64,000 nucleotides of DNA, taken from contig CAYPWJ010000005.1 of assembly GCA_964414415.1 (NCBI GenBank), forward strand, positions 11,772-75,771, given 5' to 3'. Below the pieces are notes generated by a model. The model had not been told where the DNA came from and did not search any database. It worked only from the letters and a program-made list of their open reading frames with translations. Of the stretch, positions 7,935-36,856 are shown in pieces. Source of the DNA: an uncultured Thermoplasmatales archaeon (GTDB taxonomy: Archaea > Thermoplasmatota > E2 > UBA202 > DSCA01). A program made the translations under genes and the position numbers. Position 1 is the stretch's first letter. The number at the start of each line of letters is the position of its first letter.

Positions 7935-8921
7935 ATGCATCTCCTCGTCACCGGTGGCAGCGGATTCCTCGGCGGCTACCTCCTCGACGAGCTGCAGGAA
8001 GATGGCTACGACATTCGGGTTATGAGCAGGCACCCGGGCCAGCTGTCGGAGGACAACGGCGGCATAGAGGCCTGCTACGGCGACCTGACCGAAGCACATT
8101 CGCTGCGAAAGGTCATGCAGGGCGTCGATATGGTATTCCATAACGCCGCCATCGCCGCAGACTACGGCCCTGCGGAGCGCTTCAGGCGGGTCAACGTGGC
8201 GGGGACGAGAAATGTCCTCGATGCCTGCCGAAACGCAGGTGTGCCACGCCTGGTGTATACGAGCTCAGCCGGTGTATACGGCTTTCCTGACAGCGAGGCA
8301 CCGATCACCGAGGCCAGTCCGAAGCGGCCGATGAACGCGTATCAGCGCTCCAAGTGGGAGGCGGAGCGGCTCGTGCTGCAGCAGGATGATATCGAAGCGG
8401 TCGCGGTGCGGCCGCCGCTGGTGCTGGGGCCAGGGTCGCCTGCCGCCCCGTTGCTGCTGTCCCGGCTTGAAGCACAAAAGTTGCCGTTTTTTGGCTCGGG
8501 TGACAACCTGATTTCGCTGGCGCATCCCCGCGACGTTGCACGCTGCCTCAGGCTGGCCGGTGAGGAGGGACAGAGCGGCGGGGTCTACAACGCGGTGAGC
8601 TTTACCTGCCCGGCCAAGCGGCTGTTCAGGGAGCTGGCCGACCGGCTCGGGGTGCAGCCGCCGCAGCGCCACCTGCCGTATCCGCTGGCGTATGCCGCCG
8701 CCGTCCTAGCTGAGTGGATGGCGCGGCTCCGCAGCGGTGAGCCGACATTGACGCGCTTCAGGGTGATGCAGTTCGGGACGAGCCGGGACATTCGCTCCGA
8801 TAAGGCGATGCGGGAGCTGGGGTTTAGACCTGCCTGGGACCTGGCGGCGATGGCCGACGACCTGGTGTCGTGGTATCACGACAGGGATGAGCAGCGAAAT
8901 GCCGTCAATGAAAAACATTAA
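7935..8921 (+). CDS. NAD-dependent epimerase/dehydratase (extended SDR)
   Basis: N-terminal Rossmann motif LLVTGGSGFLGGYLLDEL, then YTSSAGVYG and the YxxxK region (NAYQRSK). Confidence 0.85.
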   Translation: MHLLVTGGSGFLGGYLLDELQEDGYDIRVMSRHPGQLSEDNGGIEACYGDLTEAHSLRKVMQGVDMVFHNAAIAADYGPAERFRRVNVAGTRNVLDACRNAGVPRLVYTSSAGVYGFPDSEAPITEASPKRPMNAYQRSKWEAERLVLQQDDIEAVAVRPPLVLGPGSPAAPLLLSRLEAQKLPFFGSGDNLISLAHPRDVARCLRLAGEEGQSGGVYNAVSFTCPAKRLFRELADRLGVQPPQRHLPYPLAYAAAVLAEWMARLRSGEPTLTRFRVMQFGTSRDIRSDKAMRELGFRPAWDLAAMADDLVSWYHDRDEQRNAVNEKH

Positions 8922-8922
8922 A

Positions 8923-8968
8923 TACTACTTTGTATTATGTTTTTTGTTGTAAGCGTTACAAAATAGTA
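8923..8968. promoter_or_regulatory. imperfect 12-bp inverted repeat (TACTACTTTGTA...TACAAAATAGTA) in AT-rich leader of Fur/PerR gene; candidate operator plus promoter
   Basis: Arms at 8923-8934 and 8957-8968 match 11/12 as reverse complements. The 22-bp spacer is T-rich. The element lies 22-67 nt upstream of the Fur-family start at 8990. Confidence 0.4.
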
Positions 8969-8989
8969 GCGCTTTCAACGGTGGTGCAG

Positions 8990-9412
8990 ATGGACGAATA
9001 CGTCTCAATCCTCAGGGACCACGACATCACGGTTACGCCCCAGCGGATAGCCGTGCTCAGGTATCTGGACGAACATCGCACGCATCCCGACGCCGACAGC
9101 ATCTACGAGGACCTCAAACGGGACAACCCCTCGCTCTCCAAGACCACCATCTACAACACGCTGGACATGCTCCAGCAGCACGACCTCGTCAAGGTGCTCA
9201 CCATCGGAACGAGGTTCCGGTACGACGTCAACCTCAAGCCCCACCACCACTTCCGCTGCCGGCGGTGCGGCGCCATCATCGACCTCCCGCCGGGCAACGC
9301 ATCTCTGGACTGCATCGACACCGACGGCCACCGCGTCGACGAGGTCCACGTCTACCTCAAAGGCATCTGCAACCAATGCCTGCACAAAGAAAAGGAGGAC
9401 AACAATGGATAA
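8990..9412 (+). CDS. Fur-family metalloregulator (PerR/Fur-like)
   Basis: Winged-helix region [28 protein letters not shown], then ...[10 protein letters not shown]...CNQC (the structural Zn site with CxxC x2) and the His-rich regulatory site. It leads an operon of oxidative-stress and iron genes. Confidence 0.85.
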
Positions 9413-9566
9413 ATATGTATGCACAGTCTGCGGCTACGTCTACGACCCCCAAGAGGGCGACCCCGACGGCGGCATCGAGCCAGGGACGCCGTTCGAAGAG
9501 ATACCCGACGACTGGGTCTGCCCCGTCTGCGGCGCCGCCAAGGACGCATTCAAGCCAGTGGAGTAA
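9405..9566 (+). CDS. rubredoxin
   Basis: 53-aa [56 protein letters not shown] with the two CxxCG knuckles. An AAGGAGG ribosome-binding site sits upstream. It overlaps the Fur stop by 8 nt. It is below the 60-aa cutoff of the ORF track. Confidence 0.9.
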
Positions 9567-9569
9567 ACC

Positions 9570-10757
9570 ATGCAGCTAGAAGCAATAGACACAAACATAT
9601 ATGCAGCAGTAGCGCGGCACTGGGACCGCGAGCTCTTCGACGAGCTCATCCCCCTGCCCGACGGCACCAGCTACAACGCCTACCTGATAGAGGGCAGCGA
9701 GGCGACTGCGCTCATCGACACCGTCGACCCCGCCAAGCAGCACGAGCTGCTCGACCTGCTCGACCGCTACGACGGCGACATCGACTACCTGATAGCCAAC
9801 CACGCCGAGCAGGACCACTCCGGGAGCGTCCCGGCGGTGCTCGACCGCTATCCTGATGCAACAGTCTACTGCACGGCAAAATGCCGGGACATGCTCATCG
9901 ACCACCTGCACGTCGACGAGGAGCATATCCAAGTGGTGGCGGACGGCGACACGCTGTCGCTGGGCGACACAACGCTCCGGTTCATCGAGACGCCATGGGT
10001 CCACTGGCCGGAGACCATGAGCACCTATCTGGAAGAGCAACGCATCCTGTTCCCCTGCGACTTCTTCGGCTCCCACCTGGCAACCAGCAACCTCTACGTG
10101 GAGGACGAGGCGAGGGTGTACGAGGCGGCGAAGCGCTACTACGCCGAGATCATGATGCCGTTCCGGAAGCCAATCCAGAAAAACCTGGCGAAGCTTGCTC
10201 CGCTCGACATCGACATGATAGCACCGAGCCACGGACCCATCTATCGCCACCCTGAGTTCATCATGGACGCCTACCGGGACTGGGCCGGCGACAGCGTCGC
10301 CAGCGAGGTCCTGCTGCCATATGTCTCGATGCACGGGAGCACCAAGGCGATGGTGGACTATTTCGTCGACGCGCTGATCGAGCGTGGCGTTACGGTGAAG
10401 CCGTTCAATCTCACCACGACGGACCTCGGGCAGCTGGCCGTCGCGCTCGTCGACGCGGCCACGCTGGTCATCGCGTCGCCGACGGTGCTCGGCGGGCCGC
10501 ATCCCAAGGCCGTCTATGCCGCCTACCTCGCGAATGCGTTGCGGCCGAAGACGCGCTACGCGGGTGTCATCGGTTCCTACGGCTGGGGCGGCCGTATGGA
10601 GAACAAGATCATCGACCTCATCGGCAATCTCAACGTGGAGCTCCTTGACCCTGTTATATCAAAGGGTCATCCACGTGACGGCGACTATGCATCGATAGAT
10701 GCACTAGCCGACGAAATACTTAAAAGACATAAAGAGATAAAAGACACGGAGGTATAA
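9570..10757 (+). CDS. fprA: flavodiiron protein (FprA-type; metallo-beta-lactamase-like plus flavodoxin domains)
   Basis: The diiron-site region HAEQDHSG and the ETPWVHWPE motif, with a C-terminal flavodoxin-like domain (VIASPTVLGGPHP...GSYGWGG). Confidence 0.85.
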   Translation: MQLEAIDTNIYAAVARHWDRELFDELIPLPDGTSYNAYLIEGSEATALIDTVDPAKQHELLDLLDRYDGDIDYLIANHAEQDHSGSVPAVLDRYPDATVYCTAKCRDMLIDHLHVDEEHIQVVADGDTLSLGDTTLRFIETPWVHWPETMSTYLEEQRILFPCDFFGSHLATSNLYVEDEARVYEAAKRYYAEIMMPFRKPIQKNLAKLAPLDIDMIAPSHGPIYRHPEFIMDAYRDWAGDSVASEVLLPYVSMHGSTKAMVDYFVDALIERGVTVKPFNLTTTDLGQLAVALVDAATLVIASPTVLGGPHPKAVYAAYLANALRPKTRYAGVIGSYGWGGRMENKIIDLIGNLNVELLDPVISKGHPRDGDYASIDALADEILKRHKEIKDTEV

Positions 10758-10758
10758 A

Positions 10759-11145
10759 ATGGACGAATTTGAAGACCTGCTACAGAAGGCAGACTGGAAG
10801 AAAGAGAAACACATGCCGGTCATCGCGGTGCTCGAAGCCAAAGGCGACGAGGTGCGCCTGGAGGCGAGCGTCGGCAAAGAAATCGGGCATCCCAACACGA
10901 CGGCGCACCATATCGAATGGATCGAGGTGTACTTCAAGCCCGACAGCAAGGAATTCCCCTACCTCGTCGGACGATACGACTTCGCGGCACATGGCGCCTC
11001 GACCGACGGCGCCGACAGCAGCACCGTGTACACAAAACCGGCGGTGACGACGTCGTTCAAGACCGAAACGTCAGGCGTCATCTACGCCAAGTCGTACTGC
11101 AACATCCACGGATTGTGGGTCAACAGCGAAGAAATCACGCTCTAG
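10759..11145 (+). CDS. superoxide reductase (desulfoferrodoxin/neelaredoxin family)
   Basis: About 127 aa. H-x-HxIEW and the C-terminal YCNIHGLW (Cys/His ligands of the SOR Fe centre). GGAGGT ribosome-binding site upstream. Confidence 0.8.
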   Translation: MDEFEDLLQKADWKKEKHMPVIAVLEAKGDEVRLEASVGKEIGHPNTTAHHIEWIEVYFKPDSKEFPYLVGRYDFAAHGASTDGADSSTVYTKPAVTTSFKTETSGVIYAKSYCNIHGLWVNSEEITL

Positions 11146-11159
11146 CGAGGTGAACCGAT

Positions 11160-11645
11160 ATGGGAACAATTGGACGAGAAATGGTTGACATGGACGTCGA
11201 GGAGCTGCTGGAGCTGCTGAACAAGGCGTTTGCCGATGAATGGCTGGCCTACTACCAGTACTGGATCGGCGCGCAGGTGCTCGAAGGACAGCTGCACGGC
11301 GAAGCCGAAGCGGAGCTGCTCGAGCACGCGAACGACGAACTGCGGCATGCGCAGATGCTGGCAGACCGGATCATCCAGCTGGACGGCACCCCGGTGTTGA
11401 CGCCGGAGGACTGGTACACGCATACAAACTGCGGCTACGAGGCACCCACCGATCCGTCGGTCAAAACGATCATCCATCAGAACATCGACGGCGAGCAGTG
11501 CGCCATCAAGGTCTACCGGAAACTCGCGGATATGACCAGGGACACGGATCCGGTGACCTACGAGATCGTGCTGGAGATACTGCGCGATGAGATTGAGCAC
11601 GAGGACGACCTCGAGGGTATCCTCGACGACATGAAACATATGTAA
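11160..11645 (+). CDS. ferritin-like diiron-carboxylate protein (Dps/bacterioferritin-like)
   Basis: Four-helix-bundle signature [21 protein letters not shown] ... [20 protein letters not shown] (E...ExxH pair) ... [17 protein letters not shown]. There is no rubredoxin-like C-terminus, so I do not call it rubrerythrin. Confidence 0.65.
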
Positions 11646-11659
11646 GGAAGGTGAAAAAA

Positions 11660-12331
11660 ATGGAAAAACACGAGAAAGAAAAAGGTATGCCCCTCATCGG
11701 GGACCGGTTTCCGGAGCTAACGGTACAGACGACCCACGGGGAACTGAAGCTGCCCGACGCGTTCAAGGGAAAATGGTTCATCCTGTTCTCCCACCCCGGC
11801 GACTTCACGCCCGTCTGCACAACCGAGTTCTACGCGTTCCAGAAACGCTTCGAGGAGTTCCAGTCGCTGAACACAGAGCTCATCGGCCTGAGCATCGACC
11901 AAGTGTTCAGCCATCTCAAGTGGACGGAGTGGATCGAGGACAAGCTCGGAGAAAAAATCGAGTTTCCGATCATCGCCGACGGCACCGGGAAAGTCGCCAA
12001 CCGGCTGGGGCTCATCCATAGCGCCGGCGGCACCGCAACGGTGCGGGCGGTCTTCATCGTCGACCCCAAGGCGACGATACGCGCCATCCTCTACTATCCG
12101 GCGGAGCTCGGCCGCAACATGGACGAGTTCATCCGGATGATCAAGGGCTTCCAGAAGGCCGACGAGGACGGCGTCGCCATCCCGGCGAACTGGCCGGAGA
12201 ACGAACTTGTGCGCGACCACGTCATCGTGCCCCCGGCGAGCGACGAAAAGACAATCGAGGAACGCAAAAAGCTGCAGGACAAAGGCAAAATCGAGTGCTT
12301 CGACTGGTGGCTCTGCCACCGGAAGCCCTAA
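11660..12331 (+). CDS. peroxiredoxin (AhpC/TSA family)
   Basis: [17 protein letters not shown] with the peroxidatic Cys. The ATG at 11660 is preferred over the GTG at 11651 because of the AGGAAGGTG ribosome-binding-site spacing. Confidence 0.9.
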
Positions 12332-12362
12332 ACACGGCCATCATATGCAAAGGTGAAAAACC

Positions 12363-12881
12363 ATGATAAAGAAAGAGATAGAAAACGCGATAAACGACCA
12401 GATAAACGAGGAGCTGTACTCGGCCTACATCTACCTGTCGATGTCCGGCTACTTCGAAGACCAGGACCTGCCGGGCTTCGCCCAGTGGATGTACGCCCAG
12501 TACCAGGAGGAGATAGAGCACGCGATGCGCTTCTACCGCTACCTGCAAGAGCGCGGCGGCCGGCTGCACCTCCAAGAAATCAAGGAGCCACCCAAGGAGT
12601 GGGACTCGCCGCTCGACGCGTTTGAGACGGCGCTGGAGCACGAGCGATACATCACCGGCTGCATCGACGACCTCGTTGATCTCGCGGAAAACGTGCAGGA
12701 CCGGGCGACGTTCAACATGCTGCAGTGGTATGTCGACGAGCAGGTGGAGGAGGAAGACAGCGTCGGGGAGATCGTCGCGAAGCTGGAGCGCGTCGGCGAC
12801 AGCGGCCACGGCCTCCTGATGCTCGACCGCGACCTCGGGCAGCGACAGGCCGGCGCCAGCGACGAAGAAACAGCGGAATAG
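12363..12881 (+). CDS. ferritin (non-haem, Ftn family)
   Basis: INEELYSAYIYLSMS...QEEIEHAMRFYRYLQERGG...EHERYITGCI...FNMLQWYVDEQVEEE, matching the ferritin ferroxidase-centre residues. Confidence 0.85.
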   Translation: MIKKEIENAINDQINEELYSAYIYLSMSGYFEDQDLPGFAQWMYAQYQEEIEHAMRFYRYLQERGGRLHLQEIKEPPKEWDSPLDAFETALEHERYITGCIDDLVDLAENVQDRATFNMLQWYVDEQVEEEDSVGEIVAKLERVGDSGHGLLMLDRDLGQRQAGASDEETAE

Positions 12882-12960
12882 CTCCCTCTCTCTTTTCCCT
12901 CTTTTCTAATTCTTTTAGCTCTTGTTAAATCTCACCTGTTCTTTTCCTTGTTTTTGTCAC
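12882..12960 (+). terminator. about 80-nt polypyrimidine (CT-rich, oligo-T) tract after ferritin; archaeal terminator-like
   Basis: CTCCCTCTCTCTTTTCCCTCTTTTCTAATTCTTTTAGCTCTTGTT...CCTTGTTTTTGTC in an otherwise GC-rich sequence. It shares the CCCTCTCT(T)TTTCCCT(C)TTTCT motif with the tract at 63957-64000. Confidence 0.5.
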
Positions 12961-13028: not shown

Positions 13029-13349
13029 ATGGAAACGTCATTGGGCGACGATGAGCGGGAGAAAGAAAAGAAGACGCTGCAGGACTACATCGAAGCCGGC
13101 CGCGCCGGCGAGCAAGATATGCCGGACTCGCTGCTCTCCCAACGAAAAATGGAGGGGCTGGGCCGCGAGGCTGCACGGACCGCCATCAGCCAGGGGCCGC
13201 CGTCCACCGACGACGCGGTTGCAGAAACGCTCGGGCAGCGGCTGAACCGGCACAAGGAAAAGCTCAAGGAGCTCTCCGACATGGCGACCGGCAAACCGCT
13301 GGCCGGCCTCGAGGAGACACCCGACGAGCGAGCCAGCGAGACAGAGTAA
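13029..13349 (+). CDS. small hydrophilic charged protein (hypothetical)
   Basis: METSLGDDEREKEKKTLQDYIEAGRAGEQD... with GC-rich third positions. GAGGTGGA ribosome-binding site upstream. Internal Met chosen over the 12948 start. Confidence 0.4.
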   Translation: METSLGDDEREKEKKTLQDYIEAGRAGEQDMPDSLLSQRKMEGLGREAARTAISQGPPSTDDAVAETLGQRLNRHKEKLKELSDMATGKPLAGLEETPDERASETE

Positions 13350-13400: not shown

Positions 13401-14327
13401 CTAGTCGAGGATGTCGGTTGAGAAACTACCGGTCAGGTTGACGGGTGATGCCGTATGCTGTCGGCCGTGATAGGTGAAGGTGGCGCTGCTGTCGACGGTG
13501 TACCTGGTCGTCTCGTCGTTCTCAATGTGCGTCGCAAACCACTGGATGAGGTCGCTGCCGTTGACGACGGCGCTGCAGGCCACCTGAGTGGTCTCGTGGG
13601 GTGGCAGCGTGACGCTGCCGGTGAGGGAGCCGCGGCCGACGGTGAGGTTGTTCATCCCGAAGCGGTAGGTGAACGCGTCGACCTCGATGGCGCTGTCATG
13701 CGGGTTGTAGAGGTGGACGGTGGTGTTGATGACGGTCGCTTCGCCGGTGACGCTGTCCCATGTGGCGGTGAAGTCGCTGGCGACGAGCAGCCGGCGCTCG
13801 CTTCCATCTATGGATGCCGTGACGTTCCGGGGCTGGCTGAGCCGGAGCGTTTGAAGCAGGTCTGTATGCACGGTGCCGTAGCTCTCGTGGATGGTCCGGG
13901 TGCGGTGGAGAGGCCCGGCGGTGGCCTTCACGGTGTACATGAACTCGATGTGGGTGGTCTCGCCGCGGTCGACATGTGACGACCACCATCGGGGCACCCT
14001 GCTCATGTTGACGCTGCTGACGGAGTCGATGACGGTGGCGCCATGTTTGAGGGTGACGTCGGCGTCGTGCCCCTTGGCGATGACGATGTCGTTGAGTAGG
14101 ACTGCATAGCGGAGCGATGAAATCGTGACGTCGAAGGGATTTGGGTTGTCGACGGTTGCCGTGGTCACCAGTTCCGTCTCGTTTGCTGACACGTTTCCCC
14201 AGCTGTTCTCTATCGAGGTTACCCGTGGCGCGCCGAGCCAGCCTGCCAGGTAGCCCGCTACGGCGGCGACGGCGACGGCTGCACCTGCGACCACGACGGC
14301 CGCGACGGCTTTTTTCCAGCGCTTCAT
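13401..14327 (-). CDS. membrane-anchored tandem LEA_2/WHy-domain protein
   Basis: N-terminal Ala/Val-rich TM helix, then two repeats of the LEA14/WHy-like pattern (DNPNPFDVTISSLRYAVLLNDIVIAKG ... ; second repeat TVHLYNPHDSAIEVDAFTYRFGMNNLTVGRG). Confidence 0.55.
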   Translation of the reverse strand: MKRWKKAVAAVVVAGAAVAVAAVAGYLAGWLGAPRVTSIENSWGNVSANETELVTTATVDNPNPFDVTISSLRYAVLLNDIVIAKGHDADVTLKHGATVIDSVSSVNMSRVPRWWSSHVDRGETTHIEFMYTVKATAGPLHRTRTIHESYGTVHTDLLQTLRLSQPRNVTASIDGSERRLLVASDFTATWDSVTGEATVINTTVHLYNPHDSAIEVDAFTYRFGMNNLTVGRGSLTGSVTLPPHETTQVACSAVVNGSDLIQWFATHIENDETTRYTVDSSATFTYHGRQHTASPVNLTGSFSTDILD

Positions 14328-21552: not shown

Positions 21553-22428
21553 ATGAAAACAAGTCCATATCCAGCGGGAAAAGGCAACATGAAATGGGTC
21601 TCGACCGAATGGCTCGAGGAACACCACGACGACCCCGACCTGATGGTGCTCGACACGCAGCCCGACATCCACGACTATATTACGGAGCACCTGCCAAACG
21701 CGGTCTACTTTAACCAGCGATTGCTCCGCATCCCCTACAGGGGCAGACCCGGCGTCTACGTGCCCGATACCGTGGTGCAGCAGCTGTTCAGCCGCATCGG
21801 CCTCACGCCGGCAAAGCCGGTCGTCGTCTACGGCGGCGTCGGCGCCTTCCGCGGCTGGGGCGACGGCCTCGAGCAGACCATGGTCGCCTACACCCTTGCC
21901 CGCTACGGCCACAAAAACGTCCACGTCCTCAACGGCGGCATCGACAAATGGAAAGCCGAGCAGCGACCCCTGGCCAAGGGATTCCCCGACCTCACGGAGA
22001 GCGACTTTCCCGTCCAGGTGCAGCACGACTACGTCGTCGACATGGACCAAGTCAAAGACATGAAAGACCGCGACGACGTGATGCTGCTCGACGCCCGGCC
22101 GCCCAACTTCTACGAAGGGCAGGGCCCCTGGCGGAAACCCGGCCACATACCCGGCGCGGTCAACCTGCCCTGGAAGCACCTGATGGACGAGGCAAACGCG
22201 ACGCTGCTCAAGCCCGACGACGCCATCCAGACGGTGCTCGACGACCGCGGTATATCGCCCGACAAGACCATCATCTGCTCCTGCGGCACCGGGCGGGAGG
22301 CCACCAACGAGTTCTTGCTGTTCAAATGGTACCTCGGCTATCCGAACGTCCACATCTACGAGGGCTCCTTCACCGAATGGACGGCCCACCCGGACAACCC
22401 GACGGCGACGGGCCCCGAGCCCTACTAA
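21553..22428 (+). CDS. tandem-rhodanese sulfurtransferase (thiosulfate/3-mercaptopyruvate sulfurtransferase-like)
   Basis: Two rhodanese domains with an active-site Cys loop CSCGTGREAT in the C-terminal domain. Confidence 0.85.
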   Translation: MKTSPYPAGKGNMKWVSTEWLEEHHDDPDLMVLDTQPDIHDYITEHLPNAVYFNQRLLRIPYRGRPGVYVPDTVVQQLFSRIGLTPAKPVVVYGGVGAFRGWGDGLEQTMVAYTLARYGHKNVHVLNGGIDKWKAEQRPLAKGFPDLTESDFPVQVQHDYVVDMDQVKDMKDRDDVMLLDARPPNFYEGQGPWRKPGHIPGAVNLPWKHLMDEANATLLKPDDAIQTVLDDRGISPDKTIICSCGTGREATNEFLLFKWYLGYPNVHIYEGSFTEWTAHPDNPTATGPEPY

Positions 22429-22430
22429 CG

Positions 22431-23774
22431 ATGCTGTTCGAACGCATCACCTCTCCTGGCCTGGCACACAACTCCTACATCGTCGGCTCGCAGGGACAGG
22501 CGGCGGTCATCGACCCCCGGCGTGACGCCTGGACATATGCAGAGATAGCACGCAGCAACGACATGCGCATCACCCGTATATTCGAGACGCACCGCAACGA
22601 GGACTACGTCATCGGCTCCCTCGAACTCGCCGAGCTCACCGGCGCGGACGTGTATCACGGCGGAGCCCTTGACTTCGACTACGGCGTCCCGGTCGAGGAG
22701 GACGACAGCTTTACCGTGGGCGCCCTCAAGCTCCAGGTGCTCGAGACCCCGGGCCACACGGACGAGAGCATCTCCATCGTCGTGACCAACGCGGCGGTGG
22801 CGCCGCAGCCCTACATGGTGTTCACCGGCGATGCATTGTTCGCGGGCGACGTCGGCCGCACCGACCTGTATGGCAGCGATGAACGTGAGCGGATGGCCTC
22901 GGCGCTGTACGACAGCCTATATGAGAAGCTGCTGCCGCTGGGCGACCACGTCATCGTCTGCCCGGCCCATGGCTCCGGCTCGGTCTGCGGCGGCTCCATC
23001 GGCGATTTGCCGTTCACGAGCATCGGCTACGAACGGCGGAGCAACCCGATGCTGCAGCTCGACAGGCAGGACTTCATCGAGCGGAAACGCCAGGAGGAGC
23101 TCCACGTGCCGCCGTATTTCCGGCAGATGGAGATATACAACAAGCGTGGGGCGCCGGTGCTCCACCGGATGCCGCAGCCCGCGGCGCTGTCGGTCAGCGA
23201 GCTCGCCGGGATGCAGGACGAGGCGCAGCTGGTGGACGTCCGTCGGCCGGATTGCTTTGCAGCGGCACATATCCCGGGCAGCCTCAACGTGTGGAGCCAT
23301 GCGCTGGCGGGCATCGCGGGCTGGTTCCTGTCATACGACCGGCCGGTGGTGCTCATCGACGGCGATATGGATGCAGCAACGCGCTCCCTCGTCCGCCTCG
23401 GCTTTGACGACCTGTCGGCGTTGCGGGGCGGCATCGGCACCTGGCAGCAGGCGGGGCGGCCGGTGGGGCACATCGACGTGTGGCACGCCGACCGGCTGCA
23501 TGCACGGCTGGATGACGTGTTCACTTTGGACGTCCGGACGAGGCGGAGCCGTGGCGAGCATGGCCACATCCCGGGCTCCCGCCACGTGTATCTCGGTGAT
23601 CTGCCCGACCGGCTTGACGACCTCCCGCGCGAGGAGATCATCGTTATCTATTGTGATGCGGGCTACAAGACGGGGACGGCGGCGAGTCTGCTCACCCGGC
23701 ATGGATTCGACAGGGTGGCGGAGCTCGTCGGTGGCTTCGCGGCCTGGCGGCAGGCCGGCTACGCCGTTGACTAG
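22431..23774 (+). CDS. metallo-beta-lactamase-fold hydrolase fused to two rhodanese domains
   Basis: N-terminal metallo-beta-lactamase region (HRNEDYVIG, GHTDESI, then CPAHGSG), followed by two rhodanese-like modules. One has a catalytic-type Cys (IYCDAGYKTG). It starts 3 nt after the rhodanese stop. Confidence 0.8.
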   Translation: MLFERITSPGLAHNSYIVGSQGQAAVIDPRRDAWTYAEIARSNDMRITRIFETHRNEDYVIGSLELAELTGADVYHGGALDFDYGVPVEEDDSFTVGALKLQVLETPGHTDESISIVVTNAAVAPQPYMVFTGDALFAGDVGRTDLYGSDERERMASALYDSLYEKLLPLGDHVIVCPAHGSGSVCGGSIGDLPFTSIGYERRSNPMLQLDRQDFIERKRQEELHVPPYFRQMEIYNKRGAPVLHRMPQPAALSVSELAGMQDEAQLVDVRRPDCFAAAHIPGSLNVWSHALAGIAGWFLSYDRPVVLIDGDMDAATRSLVRLGFDDLSALRGGIGTWQQAGRPVGHIDVWHADRLHARLDDVFTLDVRTRRSRGEHGHIPGSRHVYLGDLPDRLDDLPREEIIVIYCDAGYKTGTAASLLTRHGFDRVAELVGGFAAWRQAGYAVD

Positions 23775-24579: not shown

Positions 24580-26082
24580 ATGAGCGATGACCGCCAGACG
24601 GAGGAGAACCCCCGGATGAGGCAATTAGCCCTCGAATCGTCGCTGAATCCGATCGCGCTCTCCGACCTCGACGGAGAGATCACTTATGTCAATCCAGCTT
24701 TCATGGAAACCTGGGGACACGACGACGAAAACGAGGTGCTCGGTCGGCCTGCAACGGCATTCTGGGCGACTGAGGGCAAAGCGAAAGAGGTGCTGCACGC
24801 GCTGCACGAGACAGGGAGATGGTTCGGCGAGATCATCGCCCGCCGCAAGGACGGCACCACGTTCCCGGTGCAGACCTCGGCCAGCGTGGTGACCAATGAA
24901 GACGGCGAAGCGGTCGGCATGATGGCATCCTTCGTGGACCTCAGCGAGCACGCCCGGATACGGCAGGCGCTGCACGAAACCGAGCGGAAATTCCGAGCCA
25001 TCATCAACAACTCGCCGATCGGCATCGCGCTGCTCGACGAGGACGGCGAGCTGCTGCTGAGCAACCTCGCCCTGCAGGACATGCTGGGGTACAGCGAGGA
25101 GAAGCTGCAGAACCTCGGGTTATCCGATCTCACGCATCCCGACGACGTGGAAAAAGACGAGACACTCTACCAGGAGCTCCACGACGAGGAGCGCACCTCG
25201 TATTCCATCGACAAACGCTTCGTCCGGCGGGACGGCTCCGTCATGTGGGGCGCACTCACCGTGGCGGTCATCCGCAACGAGGAGAACGCGCCGCAGAATG
25301 TCATCTGCATGGTGGAGGACGTCACCAAGGAAAAACGAATGGAGCAGGAACGCCAGCAGCTGCTGCAGGACCTGAAGCGGTCCAACGAGGAGCTGGAGCA
25401 GTTCGCCTACGTGGCGTCGCACGACCTGCAGGAGCCGCTCCGGATGGTGTCCAGCTACCTGCAGCTGCTGCAGCGCCGCTACCAGGACGAGCTCGACGAG
25501 GACGCAGACGACTTCATCGTCTACGCGGTGGACGGCGCCCGGCGGATGAAACAGCTCATCAACGACCTGCTCAAATATTCACGCATCACGACGCGCGGCA
25601 ACCCGTTCGAGCCGGTCGACATCTCCGGGCTCATGGAGGAGGTCGTCGACGACCTCCAGCAGCAGATAGCGGAAACAGATGCAGCGGTCACCCACGAGGA
25701 GCTGCCGACGATTACGGCAGACAAATCGCAGCTCCGCCGGCTCCTGCAGAACCTGGTCAGCAACGCCATCAAGTACCGCGGCGACGAGCCACCGGAGATA
25801 CACATCGGCGTCAGAGAGCAGCAGGATGCCTGGCGTTTCGCCGTCGCGGACAACGGCGTCGGCATTCCGGAGGAGCAGCAGGACCGCGTATTTGTCATCT
25901 TCCAGCGGCTGCACGGCCACGACGAGGGCGGCGGCGGGACGGGCATCGGCCTCGCATTGTGCAAGCGCATCGTCGAGCGGCACGGCGGAGACATCTGGGT
26001 TGACTCGGAGCCGGGCGAGGGCGCTACCTTTTACTTTACGATTCCCAAGGATTTGAAGGAAAAACAGGGTGAAAAAAAATGA
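24580..26082 (+). CDS. PAS-domain sensor histidine kinase (PAS x3, HisKA, HATPase_c)
   Basis: H-box FAYVASHDLQEPLR, then the N box (LVSNAIKYR), G1 (DNGVGIP) and G2 (GGTGIGLALCKRIV). Confidence 0.9.
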   Translation: MSDDRQTEENPRMRQLALESSLNPIALSDLDGEITYVNPAFMETWGHDDENEVLGRPATAFWATEGKAKEVLHALHETGRWFGEIIARRKDGTTFPVQTSASVVTNEDGEAVGMMASFVDLSEHARIRQALHETERKFRAIINNSPIGIALLDEDGELLLSNLALQDMLGYSEEKLQNLGLSDLTHPDDVEKDETLYQELHDEERTSYSIDKRFVRRDGSVMWGALTVAVIRNEENAPQNVICMVEDVTKEKRMEQERQQLLQDLKRSNEELEQFAYVASHDLQEPLRMVSSYLQLLQRRYQDELDEDADDFIVYAVDGARRMKQLINDLLKYSRITTRGNPFEPVDISGLMEEVVDDLQQQIAETDAAVTHEELPTITADKSQLRRLLQNLVSNAIKYRGDEPPEIHIGVREQQDAWRFAVADNGVGIPEEQQDRVFVIFQRLHGHDEGGGGTGIGLALCKRIVERHGGDIWVDSEPGEGATFYFTIPKDLKEKQGEKK

Positions 26083-26549
26083 ATGAAGAAGAGAAGGGCA
26101 CAACGATGGGAAAACCGGTTGAGATACTGCTTGTGGAGGACAACCCGGGCGACGTCCGGCTGACCAGGGAGGCACTGCAGGAGAGCAAGCTCCGGAACAA
26201 CCTCCACGTCGTCATGGACGGCGAGGCGGCCATGGATTTCGTCTACCAGCGAGGAGAATACGCCGACGAGCCGCGTCCCGATCTCCTCCTCCTGGACCTC
26301 AACCTGCCGAAGAAGGACGGGCGGGAGGTCCTCGAGGACATAAAGGGTGACGAGGAGCTGCGGAGCATCCCGGTGGTCATCCTGACCACGTCGGAAGCCG
26401 ACGAGGACATCGTCAAGACCTACAACCTGCATGCCAACGCCTACATCACCAAGCCGGTGGGGATGGAAAAGTTCATCGACGTGGTCAAGTCGGTGAAGGA
26501 CTTCTGGTTCACCATCGTCAAGCTGCCCGACGAGCGCCTGGAAAGCTAG
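26079..26549 (+). CDS. response regulator receiver (CheY-like, single domain)
   Basis: LLVEDNPGD...LLLLDLNLPKKDG...TTS with the phospho-acceptor Asp. ATGA overlap with the upstream kinase. Confidence 0.9.
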   Translation: MNEEEKGTTMGKPVEILLVEDNPGDVRLTREALQESKLRNNLHVVMDGEAAMDFVYQRGEYADEPRPDLLLLDLNLPKKDGREVLEDIKGDEELRSIPVVILTTSEADEDIVKTYNLHANAYITKPVGMEKFIDVVKSVKDFWFTIVKLPDERLES

Positions 26550-26556
26550 AGGGACG

Positions 26557-27576
26557 ATGCAAACCGACGTGCTGCTCGTGGAGGACAACCCCGGCGACGC
26601 CCGCCTCGTGCAGGAGATGCTCAGCAACGGCGGGAAAGACAGCTACGACATCACGCATCTCGATTGCCTCTCCACGGCGCTCGAGCAACTGACGGAGGCA
26701 CAACCTGATGTCATCCTGCTCGACCTCAACCTGCCGGACAGCCACGGCGCCGAGACGTTCGACAGCGTCGCCGACCACGATATCGAGCCGCCGGTCGTGG
26801 TGCTCACCGGCCTCGACGACGAGAGCCTTGCACTGCAGCTCGTCCAGCGGGGGGCACAGGACTACCTGGTAAAGGGGCAGCTCAGCCCGACGCTGCTCAG
26901 GAAGAGCATCGTGTATGCCATGGAGCGGCATGAGAGCAAGCAGCGGATAGAGGAGGTCGCCGAGGCGTTGCGGGTCATCAACAAGCTCATACGGCATGAC
27001 ATCATCAACAAGCTCCAGGTCGCGCAGAGCGCCCTCAGCCTCGCCCAGGATGATGCAGACGAGGCGATGATGCAGAAGGCGATGGACCGCGTTGGAGACA
27101 CAATCAGTCTGCTGCATCGCATGAAGGAGCTTGAGCAGCTGGTCGCCTCCAGCAAAACCGTGCAGGAGTACGACGCCCGTCAGGTCGCAGAGGAGGTGGC
27201 GGATCGATTTGACGTCTCCATCTCGCTGGAGGGCGACTGCGCCGTCACGGCCGACAAGGCGCTCTATTCCGTCATGGAAAACCTCCTGCGCAACGCGGTT
27301 GACCACGGCGGCAGCACCCATGTCGACATCTCCATGCAGCCGCATGACGGCACCTGCGAGATACGCGTCGCGGACAACGGCAGCGGCATCGACGATGCGA
27401 TAAAGCAGCGGGTGTTCAACGAGGAGTTCAGCTCGGGCGGCAGCGCCGGCTCCGGGCTCGGCCTCTACATCGTCAAGAAGACAATGGAGCGATACGGCGG
27501 CCGCGTGGCCATCGAGGACAACGACCCCCAAGGTGCAGTCATCGTGCTCACGCTTCCCAGGTGCTCGCCAGGATGA
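26557..27576 (+). CDS. hybrid receiver-histidine kinase (REC, H-box of RHDIIN type, HATPase_c)
   Basis: N-terminal REC (LLVEDNPGDARL...ILLDLNLPDSHG), H-box LIRHDIINKL and an ATPase with DNGSGID / GSGLGLYIV. Confidence 0.8.
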   Translation: MQTDVLLVEDNPGDARLVQEMLSNGGKDSYDITHLDCLSTALEQLTEAQPDVILLDLNLPDSHGAETFDSVADHDIEPPVVVLTGLDDESLALQLVQRGAQDYLVKGQLSPTLLRKSIVYAMERHESKQRIEEVAEALRVINKLIRHDIINKLQVAQSALSLAQDDADEAMMQKAMDRVGDTISLLHRMKELEQLVASSKTVQEYDARQVAEEVADRFDVSISLEGDCAVTADKALYSVMENLLRNAVDHGGSTHVDISMQPHDGTCEIRVADNGSGIDDAIKQRVFNEEFSSGGSAGSGLGLYIVKKTMERYGGRVAIEDNDPQGAVIVLTLPRCSPG

Positions 27577-30500
27577 CCGTCGTCCACACACTGTTGATAG
27601 AGGACAATCCCGCCGATGCCCGCCTGGTAGAGGAGATGCTCGCGGGGCTCGACGACATCCAGTTCGACATCACCATGCGGGAGAGCCTCGCCGACGGCGC
27701 CGCCTTCCTCGACGACCACGAGGCAGACGTGGTGCTCCTCGACCTCGGGCTGCCGGACAGCCAGGGCATGGAGACGTTCAAGTCCATGCATCAAAAGGCG
27801 CCGCTCGTGCCCATCGTGGTACTCACCGGGCTCAAGGACGAGGAGCTCGCCGTCGAGATGGCCAGGGAGGGAGCGCAGGAGTACCTCGTCAAGGACACCA
27901 TCAGCAGCGAGGTGCTCACCCATACCATCCAGTACGCCATCGAGCGGAAAAACGTAGAAAAACACATGCATCGGCTGAACAGCCTCCTGCAGGCGATACG
28001 AGAAATCAACCAGCTCATCGTCCGGGAATCCGACCCGGAGGAACTGATAACGCAGACATGTAACGCTCTCGCCTCGGTCAGCGACTATCATCACGTCCGG
28101 ATATTCCTAACGGACGAGCTCGGCGAGGCGCAGCTCGGCATCTGCGCCGACCAGGATGGGACGACGAAATACCCGGAAAGCGGTATACCTGTCTGCATGG
28201 AACGGGCGATAGCCGACAGCGACATAGTGGCCGTTGAAACCATGGGGTCTATGTGCAGCGAGTGTCCATGGAACGGGAGCTACGATGAGGAATACAACGC
28301 CGTCGCCATACCGCTGAGCTACCTCGGCAACGTGTATGGAGCGCTGTCGGTTCTCATCCCCACAGAGCGGCAGGAAATAGCGGAGGAGGAAGGCCTGTTC
28401 AAGGAGGTCGCCGACGACCTGGCGTTCGCCCTCTACGACCTCGAGCTGGAGGAAAAACACCGGGAGACGGAGGAGCGATACCAGCAGCTCGTGGAGAGCA
28501 CCCCGGGCCTGATATGCCAGCTCGACCCCGACGGGACAACGCGGTTCGTCAACAGCTACGTGGAGGAGCTCATGGGCTACACGGTGGAGGAGGTCGTCGG
28601 CGAGGACTGGTGGAGCCTGTTCTATCCCGGCGACACACGCGAACAGGTCGACGAGCTGTACGACCGCTTCAAGGCAGACGACGACGTCCGCGGTTTCGAG
28701 ATGGAGATGACGGACAAGCACGGGGAACGACACATCATCAGCTGGAACTCGTTCAACCAGTGGGAGAACGGAGCGCTACAGAAAATATTCGGCGTCGGCG
28801 TCGACGTCACCGAGCGGGAGACTTTTCTGGAAAAACTAAAAGAGAAGCATCGAGAGACGGAGGCCATGCTGGAGAGCATGTTGAACGCCTTCGTTCTCTT
28901 CGAGTCGGTTTTTGATGAAGATGGAAACTTCGTCAGTTACCGGTTCGTCTACATCAATAAAGCCTACGAGGAGATGACCGGTGTCAAGCTCGAGGACGTG
29001 AAGGGCAAGACGGTGCATGAAGTCTGGCCCGACACGGAGCCCGAGTGGATAAAAAGATATGGAGAGGTGGCGGTGACCGGCGAAAGTCAGACCTTCGACC
29101 TGTATCACGACCCCACCGGCAAGGTATATCACTGCAACGTATACCGGCCGTACGACACACAAGAGAAGTTCTGCGTAATCTTCGAGGATATCACCGACTG
29201 GAAGCAGGCGCAGCAGGAGCTCAAGGCACGCGAGAAAAAATTCCGGGAGATATTCCACAACGCCAACGACGCGATGTACCTCCACACGTTAACGGACGAC
29301 GGTATGCCGGACCGGTTCATCGAGGTCAACGACGTCGCCTGCGAGATGCTCGGCTACACCCGCGAAGAGTTCCTGGAGATGTCGCCGATGGACATCGACG
29401 ACCCTGATGCACCGACAGATGTCCCTGCAGTTATGCAGGACCTGCTGGACGAGGGACATGCCACCTTCGAGATGCGGCACGTGGCCAAGGACGGCTCCCG
29501 CGTACCGGTCGAGATCAGCTCCCACGCGTTTACCCTGAACGGCGAACAGCTCGTTCTCTCCATCGCCCGGGACATCACCGAGCGAAAGAAAAGACAAAGG
29601 CGACTTGAAAGCTCGCAAGAAATTGCACATGTCGGGAGTTGGGAAATAGACCTGGCAACCGGTGACCTCTCGTGGTCCGACGAGACATGCCGGATATTCG
29701 GAGTGCCGGTCGATGAACCGGTAGACTACGATACGTTTCTGGATTTCGTCCACCCCGAGGACCGTGATCATGTAGATGAAAAGTGGAACGAGGCGCTACA
29801 AACCGGGGAATACGACATTGAACACAGAATCCTGGTCGACGGCACAACAAAGTGGGTGCGGGAAAAAGCCGACATAACGTTTGACGGCCAGGGAGAGCCG
29901 GTCGAAGCAATCGGAAGCGTGCAGGACATCACCGAGCGGAAAGAACGGGAGAAAACCGAGCGGGAACTCAGGCAGCGCATCGAGGCGGGCCTGCAGGCTG
30001 GCAACCTGGCATGGTGGGAGATGGAGCTGCCCTCCGGCGACGTTGTCTTCGACGACCGGAAGGCAGAGATGCTCGGCTACGAGCCGGAGCACTTCGAAAC
30101 CTACGAGGACTTCACCGAGCTGCTGCACCCAGACGACTACGAACGGGCGATGCAGGCCATGCGGGACCATCTGCAGGGCCGGGAGGAGAACTACGAGGTC
30201 GAATACCGCATCAGGACCAGCGATGGCACCTATCGATGGTTCCGGGACGTCGGCGGCATCACGGAACGGGGTGAGGAGACAGGCCACACCAGGGTCATCG
30301 GCATCGTCGAAGACATCACCGAGCGAAAACAGGCACAGCAGGAGCTCGAAAAGCAGGAGCGGAAACTCCGGATGCTCTTCATGGAGACACAGAACCCCAT
30401 CCTGGTGGCAAACGACGAGGATGTACACGTCGATGCCAACCAGGCCGCCCTCGACTTCCTGGAATGCGACATGGAGACGCTGCGGGGAACAACCCCCTGG

Positions 30501-32228: not shown

Positions 32229-32658
32229 AAAGTGTATCCTCGTCGTGGACGACGAGCCGGACATCCAGGAAATCCTGCGGGCCTACCTTGAGCGCATCGA
32301 TACCGTCACGGCGGTGCCAGCGCTGAGCGGCGAAGACGCCGTTGCCACCTATCGAGAGCTCGCCGATGGCGGCAGGACGCCGGCGATGGTCGTCATGGAC
32401 CTCAACCTCTCCGGCAGCAACTCCGATGAAGAGATCATCGACGCGCATCGTGCCGGCGAAGGTGAAAGCATGGACGGCGTCCGGACCGCCGAACGCATTC
32501 TGGATGCCGACGGCGACGCCGTGATATGGGGCTACACGGCCTGGTCGGACACGGCGTGGGGCGACCGCCTGCGTGAGGCCGGCGCTCGGAAGGTCGTCGA
32601 CCGCACCGTCTCCTTCAAGGAGTTCGCCGGCATGGTGGAATCATTTATGGCGGAGTAG
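32221..32658 (+). CDS. stand-alone receiver domain protein with an insertion
   Basis: ILVVDDEPDIQEILRAYL ... VVMDLNLSGSNSDEEI. It overlaps the stop of the giant sensor. Confidence 0.65.
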   Translation: MNKKCILVVDDEPDIQEILRAYLERIDTVTAVPALSGEDAVATYRELADGGRTPAMVVMDLNLSGSNSDEEIIDAHRAGEGESMDGVRTAERILDADGDAVIWGYTAWSDTAWGDRLREAGARKVVDRTVSFKEFAGMVESFMAE

Positions 32659-32907
32659 CACGACGGCGCCGGTATCGGTACAAAAAGGCGGTCTGCAGGA
32701 GGATTGAGGTGGAGGCAAACGCCGTCAAAAAAAGTGACGAGTTTGGGGCTCAATCCTCCGTTGCCCTCTGAAAGGGCTGACCGACCGCACTATAACAACG
32801 GTTAATAATATATAAAACTTTCGTTTACTGGACCGGGTCGGGGCCCTGCGCAGGAAAACGACGTTCACGACTGCAAATGTTATATATCGTTCTCAGTTGA
32901 AAGACAC

Positions 32908-36755: not shown

Positions 36756-36856
36756 AACGTGCTTCATTCCTTTCCATCTCTATGTCTTCCTGCTCACGTC
36801 GACAGAAATCCTCCGCTGCGCCAGAAACGTTAAAAGAAAACAGGCGATGTCCTGCC

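Follow-up and report, generated by a model that had tools for sequence, protein, structure and literature searches.

The perR-rub-fdp-sor-dpsL-prx-ftn genes of an uncultured Thermoplasmatota archaeon probably constitute a single autoregulated operon (Table 1). An initial annotation had read them as an O2/ROS-detoxification and iron-sequestration unit under its own Fur/PerR-family regulator, and this core reading is borne out by the agreement between domains, catalytic and ligand residues and tight gene coupling, as well as by a single promoter/operator ahead of the genes, an oligo-T terminator behind them and an arrangement conserved in relatives. The seven genes lie on the plus strand between positions 8990 and 12881 of the 64-kb stretch of DNA analysed here (the window); their identities, established by Pfam and NCBIfam searches, are those originally given, and public gene calls return the same coordinates. 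PerR-led oxygen-stress operons are a well-known design in anaerobic bacteria, and our analysis shows that they are widespread in Thermoplasmatota.

Table 1. Features of the perR-led operon and its surroundings (window coordinates).
Feature	Position	Strand	Details
TATA-like box ATTAAATAC, A-rich BRE-like stretch directly upstream	8917..8925	+	predicted archaeal operon promoter
Upstream operator half-site TTGTATT	8930..8936	+	17 bp before main box; TGTA at this offset
Main candidate PerR operator TTGTAAGCGTTACAA	8947..8961	+	family consensus TTGTAATnATTACAA; predicted to overlie transcription start
Degenerate second box TAGTAGCGCTTTCAA	8964..8978	+	17 bp after main box; 3 mismatches
perR, Fur-family PerR-type metalloregulator	8990..9412	+	140 aa; PF01475 1.6e-22
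rub, rubredoxin	9405..9566	+	53 aa; PF00301 1.1e-25; NF045768 108 bits (cut-off 90)
fdp, class-A flavodiiron protein	9570..10757	+	395 aa; PF19583/PF00753; metallo-beta-lactamase-like and flavodoxin-like domains
sor, 1Fe superoxide reductase, neelaredoxin type	10759..11145	+	128 aa; PF01880 4.3e-28; TIGR00332 116 bits (cut-off 62)
dpsL, DPS-like protein (DPSL/'thioferritin')	11160..11645	+	161 aa; PF00210 3.6e-27
prx, archaeal peroxiredoxin	11660..12331	+	223 aa; NF009668 352 bits (cut-off 211)
ftn, non-haem ferritin	12363..12881	+	172 aa; PF00210 9.3e-46
Pyrimidine-rich oligo-T tract	12882..12960	+	42 T and 24 C of 79 nt; predicted archaeal operon terminator
Separate leaderless gene	13029-13349		106 aa; between operon and LEA_2 gene
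LEA_2 gene	13401-14327	minus	convergent to operon

The 80 related genome loci all derive from Thermoplasmatota-type MAGs, with two Undinarchaeota in addition. Loci L004-L006 and L008, at PerR identities of 61-85% (61% in L008), have all seven genes in exactly the same order, as does L007 as far as the contig end at the peroxiredoxin gene. Across the phylum a looser core, perR-(Hrb or Rd)-FDP-Prx-Ftn, recurs with or without Rbr and SOR; the gene order after perR is very plastic, and an Hrb-type flavin-reductase-rubredoxin fusion adjoins FDP in most relatives.

Among NCBIfam models, the regulator scores highest with that of Clostridial PerR (113 bits; cut-off 180), with Fur, Irr and Zur models as further matches, and among PDB structures it is closest to B. 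subtilis PerR (2FE3, 1.8e-21). In the 2FE3 alignment, residues H32, D79, H85, H87 and D98 fall on H37, D85, H91, H93 and D104 of the B. subtilis protein, C90, C93, C127 and C130 on its four cysteines, and N56 on its DNA-reading N61; the metal-ligand residues are invariant or nearly so among 29 homologues, at least 90% of which have Asp at the D98 position. It is Asp at the D104 position, as opposed to the Glu of Fur, that confers peroxide sensitivity, and the N61-type DNA-reading position is Asn in PerR and Arg in Fur. The nearest non-archaeal homologues are Clostridia-type proteins, at approximately 38-39% identity. A TTG start at 8930, which would give a protein of 160 aa, was rejected, as the homologues all start at the ATG at 8990.

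The inverted repeat noted upstream of perR is indeed present, as a 12-nt repeat (8923-8934/8957-8968) and an inner perfect TTGTAA/TTACAA (8947-8961). The palindrome TTGTAAGCGTTACAA starts 28 nt past the TATA-like box and is the sole site in the 64-kb window with two or fewer mismatches to this sequence. Among relatives, 46 of 83 loci have a single exact copy of the palindrome, in every case directly upstream of perR; when up to one mismatch is allowed, 73-76 of 81 related loci have the site ahead of perR, set against 8-11 such sites elsewhere in 1.13 Mb of flanks, three of the 11 being the same promoter/operator displaced by about 260 nt upstream. In the anchored consensus of 74 related loci an AAAa.tTTaAa element, which we infer to be the TATA/BRE from the archaeal promoter consensus, begins at a fixed spacing, 28-30 nt upstream of the palindrome. 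TGTA occupies the half-site offset in 61 of these 74 loci, and a second box with up to three mismatches is found at exactly +17 in 39 of them, none being found at offsets 12, 14-16 or 18-22. Half-site, main box and second box hence form a three-site array at 17-bp spacing, of which the window's second box, owing to its three mismatches, is weak on its own.

The consensus TTGTAATnATTACAA matches the B. subtilis Per box TTATAATNATTATAA (PMC545781) at 12 of the 14 specified positions, each half-site having one difference, symmetrically placed. This symmetric A-to-G/T-to-C change produces a core common to Zur boxes; in addition, the window's clade has a 6-3-6 geometry with a GCG centre, as opposed to the 7-1-7 of the family, a point against the PerR-operon reading. 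Since the Gram-positive Zur box has this very core, GTAATnATTAC (TCGTAATNATTACGA in consensus; PMC545781), DNA specificity alone is insufficient to call the regulator PerR. The shared core favors the alternative that the regulator is a Fur-, Zur- or Mur-like metal sensor rather than a peroxide sensor, so that the operon would answer iron, zinc or manganese availability, in which case the ferritin and the DPS-like protein would be the primary targets and the redox enzymes would be carried along as passengers; the subthreshold PerR-specific score, the additional Fur, Irr and Zur matches, the fact that two of the seven genes encode iron-storage proteins and the metal-homeostasis regulon of the archaeal SisPerR (PMC11724291) all point the same way. 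We nevertheless regard this alternative as unlikely, because it is redox enzymes (Hrb/Rd, FDP, Rbr, SOR, Prx), rather than metal transporters, that are the conserved partners of perR across 67 related operons, and because repression of a ferritin under metal repletion would reverse the normal Fur logic. Both the best family match and the best structure match, moreover, are to PerR, and the Asp and Asn at the D104 and N61 equivalents are those of a peroxide sensor rather than of Fur.

The rubredoxin has two CxxC motifs (C6/C9 and C39/C42). The superoxide reductase, which is without an N-terminal desulforedoxin domain, contains E16-K17-H18, H44, H50, C114 and H117 and matches two chains deposited under that name, 4BFF (1.2e-47) and 1DO6 (7e-39), which we take to be the Archaeoglobus and Pyrococcus proteins, respectively. 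The DPS-like protein matches 2VZB (9.3e-43; deposited as 'putative bacterioferritin-related protein' and presumably Bacteroides fragilis DPSL), with cysteines of which its C91/C114 pair aligns, and also 8W1D and 2CLB, chains deposited as DPS-like proteins. The peroxiredoxin has a peroxidatic C53 (PVCTTE) and a C-terminal C213/C219 pair and matches 6ITZ (6.6e-90) and 2CV4 (1.2e-79), both deposited as peroxiredoxin and the latter presumably from Aeropyrum pernix, while the ferritin shows E17, Y24, E50 and H53 and scores 111 bits with the NF007638 non-haem ferritin model, under its cut-off of 178. Finally, the flavodiiron protein finds its best PDB match in Moorella FprA (1YCF, 7.6e-64, residues 5-359) and also matches the D. 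gigas rubredoxin:O2 oxidoreductase (1E5D, 9e-51); four diiron-site motifs and the SMxxST loop of the flavodoxin domain are conserved in the alignment, the diiron ligands presumably being H78, E80, D82, H83, H145, D164 and H221.

The names of the best matches ('anaerobic nitric oxide reductase flavorubredoxin' in NCBIfam, 'nitric oxide reductase' for Moorella FprA) might suggest that the rubredoxin-flavodiiron module serves nitric-oxide detoxification under nitrosative stress and not O2 reduction. Such a role is quite improbable, however, given that the scores fall far under the NorV equivalog cut-offs (233 against 635 bits), that the D. gigas enzyme and methanogen F420H2 oxidases match almost equally, and that the module sits with SOR, Prx, DPSL and ferritin behind a PerR-type regulator, whereas an NO-responsive one is absent. 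The description of the operon as complete is overstated: neither an NAD(P)H:rubredoxin oxidoreductase nor a flavin-reductase domain was found in the operon or the rest of the 64 kb, which leaves the system without its electron entry point. Of the genes checked, none was seen to encode an oxidase, catalase or SOD, but a window of 64 kb is too small to establish the strict anaerobiosis suggested initially.

Successive genes from perR to ftn are separated by -8, 3, 1, 14, 14 and 31 nt, the first value being the 8-nt perR/rub overlap exactly as initially described. The rubredoxin gene, then reported as missing from the ORF track, is included in public annotations, and its product of 53 aa is under the usual ORF-length cut-off, which explains the omission. 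The strong ribosome-binding sites also claimed are present in five of the seven genes, as Shine-Dalgarno cores of at least 5 nt from AGGAGGTGA within -20..-4 (background chance 0.08 per site; P ~6e-5 for the enrichment), but not in perR and the FDP gene, whose cores have just 4 nt (GGTG and GGAG). After ftn, the tract described as CT-rich and terminator-like proved to be 84% pyrimidine, with five T runs of at least four in 79 nt versus 2 per kb in the window, and similar tracts follow ftn in relatives L004, L005 and L008; as no hairpin-type terminator was found on the plus strand after ftn, we predict it to be an archaeal-type oligo-T terminator. The LEA_2 gene, by contrast, does not follow the operon as had been stated, being encoded on the opposite strand with another gene in between. 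Very improbable is the view that the genes form a conserved cluster rather than one regulated unit, several of them being constitutive or internally promoted and the palindrome autoregulating perR only: although the D. gigas rub-roo operon is reportedly strongly constitutive (cited in PMC545781), the plastic order downstream of perR implies modules able to work in other contexts and the longest gap lies before ftn, no gap can accommodate an archaeal BRE/TATA together with a leader, rub starts before the stop of perR, internal genes are preceded by Shine-Dalgarno motifs and not by leaderless starts, of which the gene at 13029 exemplifies an independent local case, oligo-T tracts occur after ftn only, and the seven-gene order persists down to the PerR identity of L008. 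Internal promoters may still lie within the coding sequence, and these would count against the single-operon reading.

As a single operon, the seven genes would be co-transcribed and induced by oxidants. In reduced cells, the PerR-type repressor, loaded with Zn at the structural Cys4 site and with Fe(II) or Mn(II) at the His3Asp2 site, would bind the TTGTAAGCGTTACAA palindrome and the weaker flanking sites and, since the operator sites begin 28 nt after the TATA, over the predicted transcription start, would block RNA polymerase recruitment. Peroxide (or O2) would then oxidise the Fe-site histidines, or the metal would be lost, and PerR would leave the DNA to allow synthesis of one polycistronic mRNA; the likely mode of control is thus that PerR represses its own operon at the transcription start until peroxide or O2 lifts the repression. 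Rubredoxin, its reductant supplied from outside the operon, would serve as electron donor both for the reduction of O2 to water by the flavodiiron protein and for that of superoxide to H2O2 by the superoxide reductase, the H2O2 would be removed by the peroxiredoxin and probably also by the DPS-like protein, and the latter and the ferritin would sequester Fe(II), thereby preventing Fenton chemistry.

The enzyme families are those of the SOR-Rd-NROR-rubrerythrin set of Pyrococcus/Thermococcus, the neelaredoxin of Archaeoglobus and the Hrb-FprA pair of Moorella; to our knowledge, the rubredoxin-centred system of Thermococcales is not under PerR control. In the window's clade, a free 53-aa rubredoxin replaces the Hrb-type fusion seen in most relatives, with no reductase encoded nearby. 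With B. subtilis PerR the regulator shares the five regulatory-site ligands, the Cys4 zinc site and the DNA-reading Asn at just ~35-40% identity, whereas catalase, AhpCF, haem biosynthesis genes and Fur, members of the B. subtilis PerR regulon, are absent from the archaeal operon. Bacterial precedents are perR-rbr-rdl of Desulfovibrio (D. vulgaris) and perR-rbr-roo of Geobacter (PMC545781). As in the PerR operons of bacterial anaerobes, including the Clostridium acetobutylicum PerR regulon, perR comes first and is followed by rubredoxin-dependent O2/ROS scavengers, including a flavodiiron protein (roo), and a palindrome of the xxGTAATnATTACxx type lies directly upstream of perR (PMC545781), a position that implies autoregulation. 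However, whereas the bacterial operators overlap -10/-35 elements, that of the archaeal host belongs to a TATA/BRE promoter and lies across the predicted start. The archaeal unit also comprises more genes, those for SOR, a DPS-like protein, ferritin and an archaeal peroxiredoxin being additional, and the window's operon has no gene for rubrerythrin, the hallmark protein of the bacterial operons, which does occur in many archaeal relatives.

The sole experimentally characterised archaeal PerR that we found, SisPerR of Saccharolobus islandicus, is likewise an autoregulated archaeal repressor of the Fur family that responds to H2O2 and has a Dps gene among its targets (PMC11724291). [quoted passage not shown] PerR homologues have been described as scarce in Euryarchaea outside Methanobacteria and Methanomicrobia (PMC11724291); here, 207 genome stretches encoding relatives of the window's PerR clade were found.

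Starting from gene-level facts and operator statistics, both observed directly here, we arrive at a reading that we regard as a little better than an even bet: a bacterial-type PerR, together with a Per-box-like operator lying over the start of an archaeal TATA promoter, would head O2-stress operons across the Thermoplasmatota as well as in some Undinarchaeota, would constitute the first archaeal PerR system directly controlling ROS- and O2-scavenging enzymes, and would probably stem from Firmicutes-like bacteria, having since been fitted to archaeal transcription. The gain over the initial annotation is a defined operator and promoter geometry, conserved across the phylum. The identities of the seven genes of the operon perR-rub-fdp-sor-dpsL-prx-ftn follow from Pfam, NCBIfam and PDB-sequence searches that are mutually concordant, and independent public gene calls return the same seven genes at identical coordinates. 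A TTG start at 8930, giving a longer perR, and a GTG start of prx at 11651 were ruled out by homologue alignment and by these public calls. The rubredoxin gene is indeed missing from the default ORF list, as had been remarked, because its product is only 53 aa long.

Coordinates of the operon, its flanking elements and other features of the window
Feature	Position	Strand	Length
Fur-family PerR-type regulator	8990-9412	+	140 aa
Rubredoxin	9405-9566	+	53 aa
Class-A flavodiiron protein (FDP)	9570-10757	+	395 aa
1Fe superoxide reductase (SOR)	10759-11145	+	128 aa
DPS-like 'thioferritin'	11160-11645	+	161 aa
Archaeal peroxiredoxin	11660-12331	+	223 aa
Non-haem ferritin	12363-12881	+	172 aa
Outer inverted repeat, 12-nt arms	8923-8934/8957-8968
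Main box (candidate operator)	8947-8961
Pyrimidine-rich tract 3' of ftn	12882-12960
hyp106 gene	13029-13349	+	106 aa
LEA_2 gene	13401-14327	-
Metallo-beta-lactamase/rhodanese-domain fusion	21948-23774	+
PAS-rich run of two-component signalling genes	~24580-37100	+
Receiver/GAF/multi-PAS protein	27561-32228		1551 aa
Multi-PAS HisKA_2 kinase	32908-35634		908 aa
ORF in public record	47742-50012	-	756 aa
Two NosD/right-handed beta-helix repeat proteins	53853-57772	+	~785 and 521-539 aa

The Fur-family fold of the regulator, a winged-helix DNA-binding domain joined to a dimerisation domain, is evident from PF01475 (80 bits; cut-off 23) and from full-length alignment with Bacillus subtilis PerR 2FE3, which is also its closest solved structure (1.8e-21). 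Aspartate, not glutamate, at position 104 is diagnostic of PerR. In the 2FE3 alignment, residues H32, D79, H85, H87 and D98 correspond to His37, Asp85, His91, His93 and Asp104, the regulatory-site ligands listed for PerR in B. subtilis numbering (PMC11724291). Likewise, C90, C93, C127 and C130, arranged in two CxxC motifs, match the zinc-site C96/C99/C136/C139, and Y55-N56 matches the recognition-helix Y60-N61. Across 29 homologues, down to 36% identity, the zinc-site cysteines are invariant and the regulatory-site ligands are invariant or at least 90% conserved. The top NCBIfam model, the Clostridial PerR equivalog NF052545, reaches 113 bits where its cut-off is 180, and NF047406 reaches 78 of 200; because these scores fall short, the protein is best described as PerR-like, without equivalog status in the curated bacterial groups. 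Its nearest homologues outside archaea are Clostridia-type proteins.

The main box, TTGTAAGCGTTACAA (TTGTAA-N3-TTACAA), is found once in the 64 kb, and no other site appears when up to two mismatches are tolerated. Among the related loci carrying a perR homologue, the exact palindrome occurs as a single copy in each of 46 out of 83, always directly 5' of perR, and with at most one mismatch it lies no more than 130 nt from perR in 73 of 81, while across the rest of those loci (1.13 Mb) there are 11 sites with one mismatch and none that is exact. Three of these 11 outlying sites are themselves perR promoter/operators displaced to about 260 nt upstream of the gene; the loci with a box upstream of perR number 73-76 of the 81. 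Compared with the B. subtilis Per box, TTATAATNATTATAA, the family consensus, TTGTAATnATTACAA, has one changed position in each half-site, symmetrically placed, and its core is identical to that of the Gram-positive Zur box (consensus sequences as quoted in PMC545781). In the GC-rich clade of the window the box is of the 6-3-6 type, since its centre is GCG, in place of the family's 7-1-7. The Zur-like core and the sub-threshold PerR scores could point to a Fur- or Zur-like metal sensor; we nevertheless consider this unlikely, given the Asp/Asn signature, the best matches to PerR, and gene partners that are consistently redox enzymes and not transporters.

For the PerR-like regulator, the surroundings of the box add a promoter geometry. 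When 74 loci are anchored on the box, a BRE/TATA-like consensus, AAAa.tTTaAa, starts 28-30 nt upstream of it, and a half-site, TTGTATT, stands at -17 relative to it; a second, weaker box with at most three mismatches is found at exactly +17 in 39 of the 74 loci, and in none of them at offsets 12, 14-16 or 18-22. Archaeal TATA boxes are usually centred at about -26, and with that placement assumed the main box would cover about +1 to +15, which makes it a candidate operator lying over the predicted transcription start, the classical position from which an archaeal repressor blocks polymerase recruitment. A bacterial promoter/terminator model was rejected: sigma-70 and hairpin scans of the window give counts no higher than in shuffled sequence, and no hairpin-type terminator is found on the plus strand, wherefore archaeal TATA and oligo-T signals are preferred. 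The upstream inverted repeat on which the initial annotation had suggested testing binding of the regulator is real, with its two 12-nt arms; they show no co-variation in relatives, and we read this outer repeat as a by-product of the half-site and main-box array. In three loci (L042, about 9737; L059, about 66; L064, about 7489) the whole TATA/half-site/box promoter lies some 250-270 nt 5' of the perR match, as against the usual ~45 nt, implying that either a further short gene or a long leader separates perR from the operator.

Of the six proteins encoded after perR, the first five carry the residues expected of their families. In the FDP, the motifs NHAEQDH, VHWPE, CDFFG and PSHG are matched in alignment with Moorella FprA (residues 5-359), and within them we take H78, E80, D82, H83, H145, D164 and H221 to be the diiron ligands (HxExDH...H...D...H pattern); Pfam matches only the N-terminal metallo-beta-lactamase-like domain, and the flavodoxin-like FMN domain is backed by PDB and NCBIfam alignments. 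Database names suggest that this protein serves in nitric-oxide reduction, which appears quite improbable considering that its scores fall far under the NorV cut-offs and that O2-reducing relatives match nearly as well. The SOR has the His4Cys iron site and E-K-H-x-P motif (E16-K17-H18, H44, H50, C114, H117), lacks a desulforedoxin N-domain, matches PDB 4BFF and 1DO6, and scores 116 bits with TIGR00332 (cut-off 62) as against 41 with the 2Fe model TIGR00320 (cut-off 147). The DPS-like protein, a four-helix-bundle ferritin-like fold with a bacterioferritin-type di-metal site, matches 2VZB (9.3e-43), 8W1D and 2CLB, aligns C91 and C114 with the 2VZB cysteines, and stays under the cut-off of the NCBIfam archaeal DPS equivalogs (85 versus 158). 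The peroxiredoxin is of the archaeal Prx6 type (NF009668, 352 bits against 211; PF10417, the 1-Cys Prx C-terminal domain, also matched; PDB 6ITZ, 6.6e-90), with peroxidatic C53 in PVCTTE and a C-terminal pair C213/C219. The rubredoxin (NF045768, 108 bits against 90) has two CxxCG motifs, CTVCGY and CPVCGA. The putative non-haem ferritin (PF00210, 156 bits against 24.5) has E17, Y24, E50 and H53 as candidate ferroxidase-centre residues and stays under the cut-off of the NCBIfam FtnA equivalog (111 versus 178).

The tight spacing of the seven same-strand genes, already pointed out in the initial annotation, is borne out by junctions of -8, 3, 1, 14, 14 and 31 nt with which the public calls agree, and the strong ribosome-binding sites also claimed there hold for five of the seven starts, which follow a Shine-Dalgarno core matching 5 nt or more of AGGAGGTGA (background 0.08 per equivalent stretch, P about 6e-5), but not for perR and the FDP gene, where the core is 4 nt only. 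The CT-rich, terminator-like tract described 3' of ftn has a pyrimidine content of 84%, contains five T runs of at least 4, fits archaeal oligo-T termination and has comparable T-rich counterparts 3' of ftn in relatives. The very short gaps, SD-type internal starts and single terminator tract make it very unlikely that the genes form a mere cluster with internal or constitutive promoters. Downstream of this predicted transcription unit, hyp106 is conserved in the two nearest related loci (65-68% identity), has no Pfam or NCBIfam match, and is probably transcribed on its own as a leaderless message, because a conserved TTTTTATAC lies ~22 nt 5' of its ATG and no Shine-Dalgarno motif precedes the start. 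It lies between the operon and the LEA_2 gene, which had been said to follow and does so only loosely, being 3' of the operon yet convergent to it. Scanning the window for Rfam families (at gathering thresholds) and for tRNAs yielded nothing relevant to the locus, and the composition profile shows no GC anomaly marking the operon as a recent island.

The related loci come from MAGs of uncultured Thermoplasmatota, Thermoplasmatales or Methanomassiliicoccales, plus two Undinarchaeota. The exact gene order is kept in full in L004-L006 and L008, and up to the contig end in L007, with PerR identities of 61-85% in these five; L004 and L005 also keep the flanks (epimerase 5'; hyp106, LEA_2 and CDC48 3'), the synteny of the GC-rich close relatives being based on tblastn. 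The make-up of the perR-led unit varies across the phylum. An Hrb-type flavin-reductase-rubredoxin fusion, and not a free rubredoxin, takes second place in 31 of 56 loci; this protein of ~231 aa (PF01613 + PF00301) stands directly 3' of perR in L011, L019, L027, L030 and ~27 others, and is replaced by the free rubredoxin in the clade of the window. Many relatives add rubrerythrin, reverse rubrerythrin, 2Fe desulfoferrodoxin, hybrid-cluster protein, IscU/IscS/TusA/DsrE or SufC/SufBD, a PAS_10 protein and a small Cys-rich protein, the longest operons reaching ~16 genes; the window holds a compact version, with the DPS-like protein where relatives have rubrerythrin. The Cys-rich protein (52 aa, for example in L072) occurs in nine loci and is without a Pfam match, and the stand-alone PAS_10-domain protein (134 aa in L011) occurs in 11 and may serve as a further sensor of redox state or O2. 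In the DPANN-type Undinarchaeota MAGs, L056 and L070, a PerR homologue (51-53% identity) has a one-mismatch box 73 nt 5' and the FDP gene next; because homologue, box and FDP gene recur there, the module may have moved between archaeal phyla.

As regards function, PerR binding, its signal, co-transcription and the electron paths are drawn from the named families and from bacterial precedents. On these grounds, one or more metallated PerR dimers on the box array would repress the promoter, perR included, and the operon would be derepressed when H2O2 or O2 oxidises the Fe-site histidines or the metal is lost. Reduced rubredoxin would then supply FDP, reducing O2 to water, and SOR, reducing superoxide to H2O2; the peroxiredoxin and the DPS-like protein would remove H2O2, and the latter, with ferritin, would keep iron from Fenton chemistry. 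The adjacency of its gene and the Hrb fusion that is its counterpart in relatives point to rubredoxin as a candidate electron donor of FDP. To call the operon complete was an overstatement: no homologue of a flavin reductase or NROR (rubredoxin reductase) is encoded in it or elsewhere in the 64 kb, so that the reductant of rubredoxin would have to come from outside the operon.

As to the proposed strict anaerobe, no oxidase, catalase or SOD is found among the annotated genes of the window, a negative that in 64 kb is no evidence of their absence from the genome. The remaining content of the window, which includes housekeeping genes of archaeal type, numerous PAS kinases and an FAD-oxidase/FeS pair, speaks neither for nor against that lifestyle. 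Other genes in it are typically archaeal (class I lysyl-tRNA synthetase, pyruvoyl arginine decarboxylase, HMG-CoA reductase, CDC48). The metallo-beta-lactamase/rhodanese-domain fusion, which adjoins another rhodanese protein and a DJ-1/PfpI protein, resembles persulfide-dioxygenase-rhodanese fusions in architecture and, if it were one, would be relevant to whether the organism makes any use of O2. The window also contains a dense, PAS-rich run of two-component signalling genes with two large multi-PAS proteins, an ORF without any Pfam match, and two adjoining large beta-helix proteins, probably surface proteins.

The places where uncultured Thermoplasmatota of sediment and gut can live are determined by oxygen tolerance, and archaeal oxidative-stress regulation is poorly known; the locus provides a concrete regulatory model (operator, promoter geometry, ligand set) applicable to more than 70 related genomes, with TTGTAAnnnTTACAA as a simple sequence probe for regulon mapping in MAGs. 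In the open-access literature we found no description of a Thermoplasmatota/Methanomassiliicoccales PerR clade, operon or operator, which is weak evidence of absence, and the only characterised archaeal PerR found in the searchable literature was that of Saccharolobus islandicus, which controls metal-homeostasis genes and not ROS scavengers (PMC11724291). Our reading, if true, would set the system apart from this PerR of the Sulfolobales and contradict the scarcity of PerR homologues that is reported for Euryarchaea outside two methanogen classes (PMC11724291). In bacterial anaerobes, PerR-headed operons of rubredoxin-dependent scavengers are already established, as in perR-rbr-rdl of D. vulgaris, with a AtCAGTAATtGTTACTGgT site at -36, and in the perR-rbr-roo operon of Geobacter (PMC545781). 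Hence, because both the enzymes and the regulatory logic are textbook matter for anaerobic bacteria, the archaeal locus would extend a known principle to a new lineage and not establish a new one.
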